Source: an uncultured Chloroflexia bacterium
GTDB lineage: Bacteria; Chloroflexota; Limnocylindria; Limnocylindrales; CSP1-4
Length of the DNA: 64,000 nt
NCBI GenBank assembly: GCA_963813335.1
Contig: CAWEYL010000001.1
Span: 1,202,281 to 1,266,280, forward strand
Direction: 5' to 3'
Shown here: piece by piece, positions 40,177 to 41,747 of the stretch
Numbering within the stretch: position 1 is the first letter of the stretch
How the letters are laid out: every line of letters begins with the position of its first letter
Made by a program: the position numbers and the translations under genes
Notes under the pieces: generated by a model
Database searches by the model: none
The model's input: the letters and a program-made list of their open reading frames with translations, nothing else
Told to the model about the DNA's origin: nothing

Positions 40177-40206
40177 TTGACGGGCGATGGTTGCGGCGCG
40201 CACTAT
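40177..40206 (+). promoter_or_regulatory. sigma70-like promoter of the met leader
   Basis: TTGACG-N18-CACTAT. Confidence 0.6.
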
Positions 40207-40215
40207 CGGCCGGTC

Positions 40216-40281
40216 ATGAGCACCTTCGTCCGATCGAACATGTGTATGCGCAGGCGGCCCCGCCGAAAGGCATGGGTCTGA
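40216..40281 (+). CDS. putative leader peptide MSTFVRSNMCMRRRPRRKAWV
   Basis: 21-codon ORF just after the promoter, ATG-TGT-ATG cluster, followed by a terminator before metY. Confidence 0.65.
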   Translation: MSTFVRSNMCMRRRPRRKAWV

Positions 40282-40337
40282 GATCCCGCGCACGTTCGAC
40301 ATGACGTAAGGAGCGGGACCACAGAACCAGGTCCCGG

Positions 40338-40376
40338 GGCCGCGGACTCCATGCAGGAGCCGCGGTCTTTTTGTTT
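40338..40376 (+). terminator. intrinsic terminator (attenuator) upstream of metY
   Basis: ggccgcggactcc-atgca-ggagccgcggtc followed by tttttgttt. Confidence 0.85.
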
Positions 40377-40409
40377 GCCCGTGAACACCAAGGAGGCACC
40401 GAACCCGAC

Positions 40410-41747
40410 ATGGCCGACCTCGATCCCACCACCTTCCGCCCGGAGACGCGGGCGCTCCATTCCGGCCAGAAGCCGGATCCCGCCACGAATGCCCGAGCCG
40501 TCCCGATCTATGCCACGACGAGCTATGTCTTCGACGACGCCGCCCACGCGGCGCGGCTCTTCGGCCTGCAGGAGTTCGGGAACATCTACACCCGGATCAT
40601 GAACCCGACCACGGACGTGTTCGAGCAGCGGGTCGCCGCGCTCGAGGGCGGCGTGGCAGCGCTCGGCGTCGCGTCGGGCCAGGCGGCGGAGACCCTGTCG
40701 ATCCTCAACCTCGCCCGCGCCGGCGACAACATCGTGAGCTCGTCGTCGCTGTACGGCGGGACCTACAACCTGTTCACCCACACCCTGCCGAAGATCGGCA
40801 TCACGACGACCTATGTCGATGGCTCCGATCCCTCGGCCTTCGGGCGGGCGATCAACGAGAAGACCAAGGCGGTCTTCCTCGAGCTGATCGGCAATCCGCG
40901 GCTTGACGTGCACGACCTCGCCTCGATCGCCGATGTCGCCCACGCCCGGGGCGTCCCGGTCGTCGTCGACAACACGTTCGCCCCGCTCCTCGCCCAGCCG
41001 ATCAGGCACGGCGCGGACATCGTCATCCACTCGGCGACGAAGTGGATCGGCGGCCACGGGACCGCCATCGGCGGCGTCGTCGTCGACGGCGGCACGTTCG
41101 ACTGGACCGCCTCGGAACGGTTCAAGCAGGACTTCGTCGATCCTGATCCGTCCTATCACGGGATCAGCTACACCGCGGCGTTCGGGAACCTGGCGTTCAT
41201 CCTGAAGCTGCGCGTCCAGGGCCTCCGCGACATCGGGGCGGCGCTCAGCCCGTTCAATGCGTTCCTGTTCCTGCAGGGGCTCGAGACCCTGCCGTTGCGG
41301 ATCGCGCGCCACAGCGAGAACGCGCTCGCGGTCGCGAAGTGGCTCGAGACCAGGCCCGAGGTCACCTGGGTCAGCTACCCGGGGCTCGACTCGCACCCGT
41401 CGCACAAGCAGGCCGTGAAGTACCTCAAGGGCGGCTACGGCGGGATCGTGACGTTCGGGGTGAAGGGCGGCGTCGAAGCGGGGCGCCGTCTCATCGACAG
41501 CGTGCAGATCTTCTCGCTGCTCGCGAACGTCGGCGACGCCAAGTCGCTGATCATCCATCCGGCCTCGACCACGCACTCGCAGCTGGAACCCGAGGAGCAG
41601 ATCAAGACCGGGGTCACGCCAGACCTCATCCGGCTGTCCGTGGGCCTCGAGCACGTCGACGACCTGATCGCCGACCTGACCCAGGCCCTCGAAGCGGCGA
41701 CCGCCGAGGCCCCGAACGAGGGGGCTCTCGTCGGCGCGGCCGGATGA
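40410..41747 (+). CDS. metY: O-acetylhomoserine aminocarboxypropyltransferase (sulfhydrylase)
   Basis: [30 protein letters not shown] lysine, ANVGD, HPASTTH; AGGAGG RBS. Confidence 0.95.

Follow-up and report, generated by a model that had tools for sequence, protein, structure and literature searches.

A predicted methionine/cysteine leader-peptide attenuator before metY-metX of Limnocylindria and its lysine version before dapB

Classical leader-peptide transcription attenuators include trpL, hisL, thrL, leuL, pheL and ilvL. Methionine and lysine synthesis is, by textbook account, controlled by riboswitches, T-boxes or repressors, and methionine is an awkward signal for a leader peptide since initiation needs methionine too. 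The mechanism of the classical attenuators is summarised in the accessible text of 10.1101/834739. The same text describes Ms5788A, a mycobacterial poly-Cys leaderless small ORF (sORF) that exerts translational control by occlusion of the Shine-Dalgarno (SD) sequence and has no intrinsic terminator. Mycobacterial poly-Cys leaders were also predicted in PMC1262725, the accessible part of which gives no conserved RNA structures upstream of met or lys operons of Actinobacteria. For methionine, metL (SLIV_29928) of Streptomyces lividans TK24 is an RNA-seq-annotated leaderless Met/Cys leader before metNIQ that was proposed to be a Met-dependent attenuator (PMC8079986). As far as the accessible text goes, metL precedes a transporter, is without a typical intrinsic terminator and was proposed from annotation (PMC8079986). 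In the literature searched, which covered few subscription journals and no supplements, we found no description of a terminator-based Met attenuator before metY, of a Lys attenuator before dapB or of the present element in Limnocylindria.

Here we analysed the DNA upstream of metY-metX in a stretch of 64,000 nucleotides from an uncultured Chloroflexia bacterium (hereafter the window, the whole stretch analysed). The metY leader is a real, conserved regulatory element, and it is very probably a classical ribosome-stalling transcription attenuator that reports charged Met-tRNA, and probably Cys-tRNA. Like attenuators of the trpL/hisL type, it combines a short ORF containing end-product codons, an antiterminator opposed to a terminator and a biosynthetic operon. 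Further, four hallmarks of the classical attenuators, namely an in-frame ORF, matching codons, a terminator and an exclusive antiterminator, were recognised in or predicted from its sequence. Unlike them, it is specific for Met(/Cys), relies on two or three control codons arranged as X-n-X, starts nearly leaderless, carries its antiterminator strand inside the ORF, 5 nt past the last control codon, and has nested helices on a scaffold common to a Lys version.

The likeness to metL, also a Met/Cys leader peptide, is one of description; judged by the accessible account of metL, the metY leader differs from it in its covarying terminator/antiterminator, its biosynthetic operon and its family-wide conservation (PMC8079986). 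With Ms5788A, as described in the accessible text, it shares an sORF at or near the 5' end that would sense a sulfur amino acid via tRNA (10.1101/834739). We rejected its assignment to the poly-Cys attenuator class because it has a single Cys, replaced in 25/82 leaders, as well as a terminator and an SD outside the stem. It also shares controlled genes and a terminator/antiterminator output with SAM riboswitches and T-boxes, but unlike these it had no Rfam match.

Organisation of the metY leader

The features of the locus, in window coordinates, are as follows.

40177..40182, + strand: predicted -35 box TTGACG (sequence; spacing conserved in relatives)
40201..40206, + strand: predicted -10 box CACTAT (sequence; spacing conserved in relatives)
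40216..40281, + strand: near-leaderless leader ORF of 21 codons (translation; frame kept in relatives)
40240..40248, + strand: control codons Met-Cys-Met (MCM; Met positions conserved, Lys there in dapB copies)
40254..40262, + strand: antiterminator 5' strand (D5), within the ORF (pairs with 40335-40343)
40262..40271, + strand: small GAAA-loop hairpin within the ORF (MFE fold)
40274..40278, + strand: segment pairing back with D5, anti-antiterminator helix B (conserved pairing)
40283..40319, + strand: helix F, post-stop, 40283-40289 with 40313-40319, in the predicted read-through fold
40289..40299, + strand: post-stop segment pairing with the MCM region 40234-40244, helix A (MFE fold)
40315..40335, + strand: hairpin C, 40315-40320 with 40330-40335, competitor of helix F
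40335..40343, + strand: antiterminator 3' strand (D3), also the terminator 5' arm (complementarity, conserved pairing)
40336..40376, + strand: predicted intrinsic terminator, GC stem then U-tract (folding, covariation)
40390..40396, + strand: SD-like AAGGAGG of metY (sequence)
40410..41747, + strand: metY, O-acetylhomoserine sulfhydrylase, the controlled gene (TIGR01326, 672 bits, cut-off 495)
41744..42799, + strand: metX-like homoserine O-acetyltransferase gene, overlapping the metY stop (best match TIGR01392, E 2.8e-86)

A preliminary description of this DNA had proposed the promoter pair TTGACG-N18-CACTAT with an ATG 9 nt on, followed by a 21-codon ORF without SD. Both were present as described: the boxes are separated by 18 nt, translation of 40216-40281 gave the same 21 residues, and no SD-like sequence was detected in the 9 nt preceding the ATG at 40216. 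Among relatives, the -35 box reads TTGACG, TTGACA or TTGCGN and the distance from the -10 box to the leader ATG is 8-10 nt. The -10 box matches the sigma-70 consensus poorly, and a simple consensus scanner run on the locus called neither the leader promoter nor the leader terminator. The proposed complementarity of 40254-40262 and 40335-40343 proved to be an exact reverse complement. The strong hairpin with a U-tract that had been noted before the metY ribosome-binding site was likewise recovered, with a fold of -25.2 kcal/mol, a stem at 40336-40369 that contains a one-base bulge, and a U-tract running to 40376. The antiterminator and terminator share the segment 40335-40343 and are mutually exclusive. 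The last control Met codon ends 5 nt before D5, and the SD of metY lies 14 nt beyond the U-tract, outside the terminator stem.

The metX-like gene scored 290 bits under the curated MetX cut-offs, against the 500 demanded. The closest named relatives of metY were labelled uncultured Chloroflexia or Ca. Limnocylindrales. A divergent yhdH/acuI-like gene (39182-40115, - strand) and a hydrolase gene (36995-37611, - strand) look frameshifted, and similar breaks occur in metY of several relatives; these are probably indels of long-read assembly. The leader ORF is untouched by these apparent frameshifts of its neighbours.

The preliminary description had set its reading against a known riboswitch or T-box, and a search of Rfam gave no such match at the locus. 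At gathering thresholds on the whole window nothing was detected at the leader, and a tRNA and a TPP riboswitch were detected elsewhere. The latter (36858-36964, - strand, 67 bits) precedes an ECF-type transporter operon. At E<=10 the locus yielded only matches of E 0.47 and 8.4 to unrelated families, and at E<=1 nothing relevant appeared at 14 related loci. We therefore rejected a SAM riboswitch (SAM-I, -II, -III, -IV, -I/IV, -V, -VI and SAM-SAH), as no Rfam aptamer matched the leader, and a T-box, as RF00230 matched three other places in the window's genome and not the metY leader. T-box-like matches below the Rfam cut-off lie at C1:247053, 837296 and 1034570 of that genome. SAM-I was not found in the window's genome, which is 81% complete, and was present before metY at two Chloroflexales loci. 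The search for SAM-I/IV was uninformative, since no control genome matched.

Control codons and RNA structure across relatives

A search with MetY matched 90/201 genomes of the order, and the DNA upstream was inspected. A leader anchored on M-x-M was found at 88/97 metY loci; the other nine comprised six distant paralogues (56-63% identity), two variant leaders and one locus without a leader. Anchoring on the promoter without regard to frame gave a start in 74 of the 88 leaders and none in 14; all 74 starts were in frame with M-x-M. The distances from start to M-x-M fell into eight classes (18, 21, 24, 27, 30, 54, 66 and 84 nt), all multiples of 3. Conservation of the ORF, on which the preliminary description had staked its reading, was thus borne out. 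When a looser promoter pattern was applied to paralogous copies of the leader, the start picked automatically fell out of frame in 2/31 copies before dapB and in 4/11 others.

Because the promoter anchor demands ATG, the count was redone with a codon-blind anchor that used RNA motifs only. Of 91 loci of at least 70% identity, the pattern anchored 83 (82 genomes) and failed on 8. Met occupied position 0 in 82/82 metY leaders and position -2 in 80/82, counts that overstate independence as the genomes are kin; the background share of Met codons was 1.68% in 912 long ORFs of the window's genome. Both Met positions were kept in 17/18 genera, and in the remaining genus, g24, 3/5 leaders kept both. 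Several leaders contained extra Met or Cys codons. The middle codon was Cys in 57/82 leaders and Ser, Gln, Ala, Val, Asp, Gly, Arg, Trp or Pro in others; Cys was absent from 25/82, and we rejected a requirement for Cys on this count. Thus, of the earlier suggestion that the leader senses Met and/or Cys, Met stood as the invariant signal, and Cys is secondary. The middle Cys codon was TGT 45 times versus TGC 12 times, whereas TGT made up 0.04% and TGC 0.49% of codons in the genome's long ORFs. The rare TGT may sharpen the sensing of Cys or may reflect an RNA constraint. Arg-Pro followed the Met codons in 82/82 leaders, with the nucleotides CGG CCC in all 82, and Trp was found at position -4 in 51/82.

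We doubted that the leader is strictly leaderless. Its ORF and two other leader-like ORFs begin 9-10 nt from the -10 box, compared with 7 nt in five long leaderless-looking ORFs of the window's genome, and a 5' leader of 2-3 nt is therefore likely. In three of four RNA runs, one contig of a relative extended from the leader into metY (with 43, 51 and 84 other letters). One of these contigs reaches past the promoter on its upstream side and could be DNA; the contigs therefore show no start, end or read-through.

Structure was assessed on 58 aligned leaders out of 95 extracted. The terminator varied on both sides in 7/12 pairs and 0/500 shuffles reached its covariation score, although kinship inflates such scores, as the tool itself warns. 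The fold of the terminator at the window's own locus had a z of -2.6, and 3/200 shuffles were as good. A covarying GC hairpin with a U-tract was present in most copies, and the U-tracts were weak in some relatives (genus g24). The antiterminator helix D, between D5 and D3, was paired in 98.1% of cells across the 58 leaders, and its 4-bp extension in 92.5%. Helix D is nearly invariant among Met leaders (two-sided change in 1/9 pairs); its support therefore comes mainly from conservation and less from covariation. Among dinucleotide shuffles of the upstream leader, 53/5000 contained a perfect 9-nt match to the terminator arm.

Helix F had two-sided change in 8/8 pairs and 74% pairing, helix B 95.1% pairing with little covariation, and hairpin C 91.6% pairing with two-sided change in 2 pairs. 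A 2-bp equivalent of the GAAA-loop hairpin was 75% paired in relatives. The pairing of the MCM region with sequence after the stop, suggested previously, was found in the MFE fold (helix A, 40234-40244 with 40289-40299) but was only partly conserved, with 73% of cells paired.

In the leaders, D follows the last control codon at a constant spacing of 5 nt. With the last control codon in the A site, helix D begins at +12 from the P-site codon; with the first Met there, it begins at +18. The leading edge of a ribosome lies at about +11 to +15. A pause consensus was sought by eye, and nothing convincing was found. A motif, ACGG-N2-6-CCGC, was observed between the terminator and the start codon, just after the U-tract, in 70/95 leaders (for example L004 and L066); the window's own leader has about 35 nt in this interval and lacks the motif. 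The region of the motif at related loci had no Rfam match.

Folding with ribosome masks placed helix D within reach when the A site was at or before the last Met, and made it impossible across the next nine codons. Compared with no ribosome, a stall at the first Met moved the energies in favour of the antiterminator in 56/59 Met leaders, with a median of -3.7 kcal/mol, and in 37/43 Lys leaders. For the window, ddG(D-E), antiterminator minus terminator, was 0.9 kcal/mol for the stall, 10.5 without ribosome and 7.5 with a ribosome at the stop codon. The stall beat the ribosome at the stop in 36/59 Met and 23/43 Lys leaders, and equilibrium folding therefore separates these two states weakly in the model. 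At full length and equilibrium, the terminator won in every ribosome state, with P(D)>0.5 in at most 3/59 leaders; thus, if the leader switches, it must do so kinetically. Before the terminator 3' arm exists, D formed without a ribosome in 38/59 leaders and with a ribosome at the stop in 45/59. In the window's own leader at this stage P(D) was 0.96-1.0 without a ribosome, and 0.3 when untranscribed upstream bases were included; we rely on the former value. Given these folding results, the off state would depend on timing or steric effects.

Distribution of the scaffold and its lysine version

A covariance model trained on Met leaders only matched 104/141 genomes of the family (a tally that includes G231, flagged unpublished and used for no other claim). 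In a phylum-wide draw it matched 2/10 genomes from a second family within the class and 0/126 genomes outside the class. We inspected 60 of the approximately 150 listed matches, mostly weaker ones, and 45 of these preceded dapB (L238-L289; identified with tblastn, and with Pfam DapB_C in 13/13 tested). In the dapB copies, Lys occupied position 0 in all 45 and position -2 in 44, as K-x-K or K-K-K, and its codon was nearly always AAG, one base from ATG. Pair 8 of helix D was changed from C-G to U-A in 21/43 Lys copies and to U-G in 18, and was unpaired in 3; pair 4 was changed from G-C to A-U in 1/43. A dapB query did not find dapB in the 81% complete genome of the window.

The remaining inspected copies preceded metY (3 of 60), genes of the beta-carbonic-anhydrase family (4), PLP-enzyme genes (3) and, once each, sulfite reductase, OsmC-like, CMD and cyclase-like genes; one lay at a contig end. 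Rhodanese-like genes were also among those preceded by Cys/Met copies. Most copies not associated with dapB retain Cys, Met or both, and some contain Cys but no internal Met, an indication that Cys, too, is read. The codons of the scaffold thus follow the downstream pathway, as tRNA-sensing attenuation predicts, and the Lys copies before dapB are the strongest control for codon-reading.

A second copy of the scaffold in the window's genome (C6:129618-129790, L232) reads M-C-R and precedes a beta-carbonic-anhydrase-family gene. Copies of this type occur in relatives as well (L015, L017, L233, L234, L237 and L240); the gene product would perhaps free sulfide from carbonyl sulfide for MetY. At L017:1414-1903, two divergent copies lie back to back before rhodanese-like and carbonic-anhydrase-family genes. 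M-A-M leaders precede genes for PLP enzymes similar to threonine synthase (Pfam PALP; L239, L255 and L260); these are perhaps sulfur-amino-acid enzymes. An OsmC-like gene is often the first after a Met leader, at times between the leader and metY (L010, L011, L016, L019, L219, L230 and L290).

Other leader-like elements were seen as well. At C1:264237 (- strand) of the window's genome, a near-leaderless ORF of 11 codons with F-F-Y-F and a terminator precedes the genes for DAHP synthase and other aro functions, and is likely a Phe/Tyr attenuator; its presence in the same genome speaks for the attenuator reading of the metY leader. At C3:386107 (+ strand), a near-leaderless ORF of 23 codons with Q-Q-Q-P-W-R and a terminator-like hairpin precedes a LysE-like exporter gene (family assigned by eye). 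Before metY of Acidobacteriota, Met/Cys-rich leader ORFs (of the M-A-M-C-M type) with terminators have a different RNA layout (L135, L137, L139, L141, L144, L145, L147, L151, L152, L158, L163 and L188). We rejected their membership in the same RNA family, as they scored 17-23 bits with the model (3 of 8 tried). Gemmatimonadales metY loci (L131, L140, L148, L133 and L173) have Cys-rich short ORFs and a terminator, with a C-C-C leader at L148; L131 and L140 had no Rfam match at gathering. A conserved element, ATTTAA..CTTGCTCC..CTAAAG, precedes these Cys-rich ORFs and is also found before metY at two Pyrinomonadaceae loci.

Proposed mechanism and alternative explanations

The leader ORF, its kept frame, the fixed Met positions, the exclusive pairings and the covarying terminator are shown by the sequences; translation, termination and a response to Met are inferred from them. 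In the proposed mechanism, transcription would start 2-3 nt ahead of the AUG and the ribosome would initiate without an SD. Upon shortage of Met (or Cys), the ribosome would come to a halt at a control codon occupying the A site. D5, which starts 12-18 nt past the first base of the P-site codon and thus at or beyond the leading edge, would then be free to capture the terminator 5' arm in helix D, with F as an extension, so that RNA polymerase would continue into metY. With ample Met, the ribosome would proceed over the next approximately nine codons and cover D5; after its release, D5 would refold into local hairpins (B, A and C) and the terminator would form. A change of AUG to AAG at the two control positions would give the lysine version seen before dapB. 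Ribosome-mediated attenuation, the reading of the preliminary description, is thus supported, but its description as unusual was overstated, given the leaderless Met/Cys leader annotated in S. lividans in the accessible text of PMC8079986.

A tentative extension, which we hold to be doubtful, is that the Limnocylindria scaffold was reprogrammed between Met/Cys and Lys by one base at two codons and that an untranslated leader defaults to read-through. The default is suggested because helix D formed without a ribosome before the 3' arm existed in 38 of the 59 Met leaders and in the window's own. Such a default would be the opposite of trp-type superattenuation and would solve the problem that Met starvation blocks initiation itself; shortage of Met would be sensed at the near-leaderless start as well as at the internal Met codons. 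Full-length energies, which favour termination, speak against it.

Other explanations of the same features were considered. Stalling could be real and the output mainly translational or by RNA stability, the hairpin being no efficient terminator. Ms5788A, which acts by SD occlusion and not by termination in the accessible text of 10.1101/834739, is a precedent, and the weak U-tracts in genus g24 and the further motif between terminator and start codon in 70/95 leaders fit such an output. However, most copies carry the covarying GC hairpin and U-tract, and the SD in the window lies 14 nt past the U-tract and outside the stem; we regard a mainly translational output as very unlikely. Still less likely is that the nascent peptide M-x-M-x-x-R-P-R arrests the ribosome by sensing SAM or another sulfur metabolite in the tunnel. 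Plant CGS1 MTO1 and TnaC are comparable arrest peptides, and the invariant Arg-Pro and the common Trp at -4 would suit one. Arg-Pro is, however, invariant down to its nucleotides because these form the antiterminator strand, the N-terminal part is free in length, and the Lys copies before dapB keep the downstream peptide and differ only in the control codons.

That met genes are often under SAM riboswitches, with SAM-I at two Chloroflexales metY loci, and that the leader has long invariant nucleotide runs might point to an undescribed metabolite riboswitch, for example for SAM, with an incidental ORF. This is extremely improbable given the absence of an Rfam match, a reading frame kept across indels and one scaffold shared by the Met/Cys and Lys pathways, which differs between them in codon identity alone. 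A Met/Lys codon swap is predicted neither by a ligand-binding RNA nor by a metabolite-specific arrest peptide. Finally, the ORF might have arisen by chance in an unremarkable leader whose terminator is constitutive, since a GC-rich genome has many short ORFs and complementary 9-mers, as the 53/5000 shuffles indicate. This explanation is contradicted by the conserved frame, the Met/Lys swap, the fixed Met positions, the covarying terminator and the 98% paired antiterminator, and has virtually no chance of being correct.

The metY leader is thus a well-conserved, predicted terminator-based Met(/Cys) attenuator that comes with a natural control, the AUG/AAG swap. Because of this natural codon swap, the mechanism is testable by a few point mutations. 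Further, the leader serves as a regulon marker that links genes of the beta-carbonic-anhydrase family and OsmC-like, rhodanese-like and threonine-synthase-like genes to sulfur amino-acid supply in an uncultured soil lineage.
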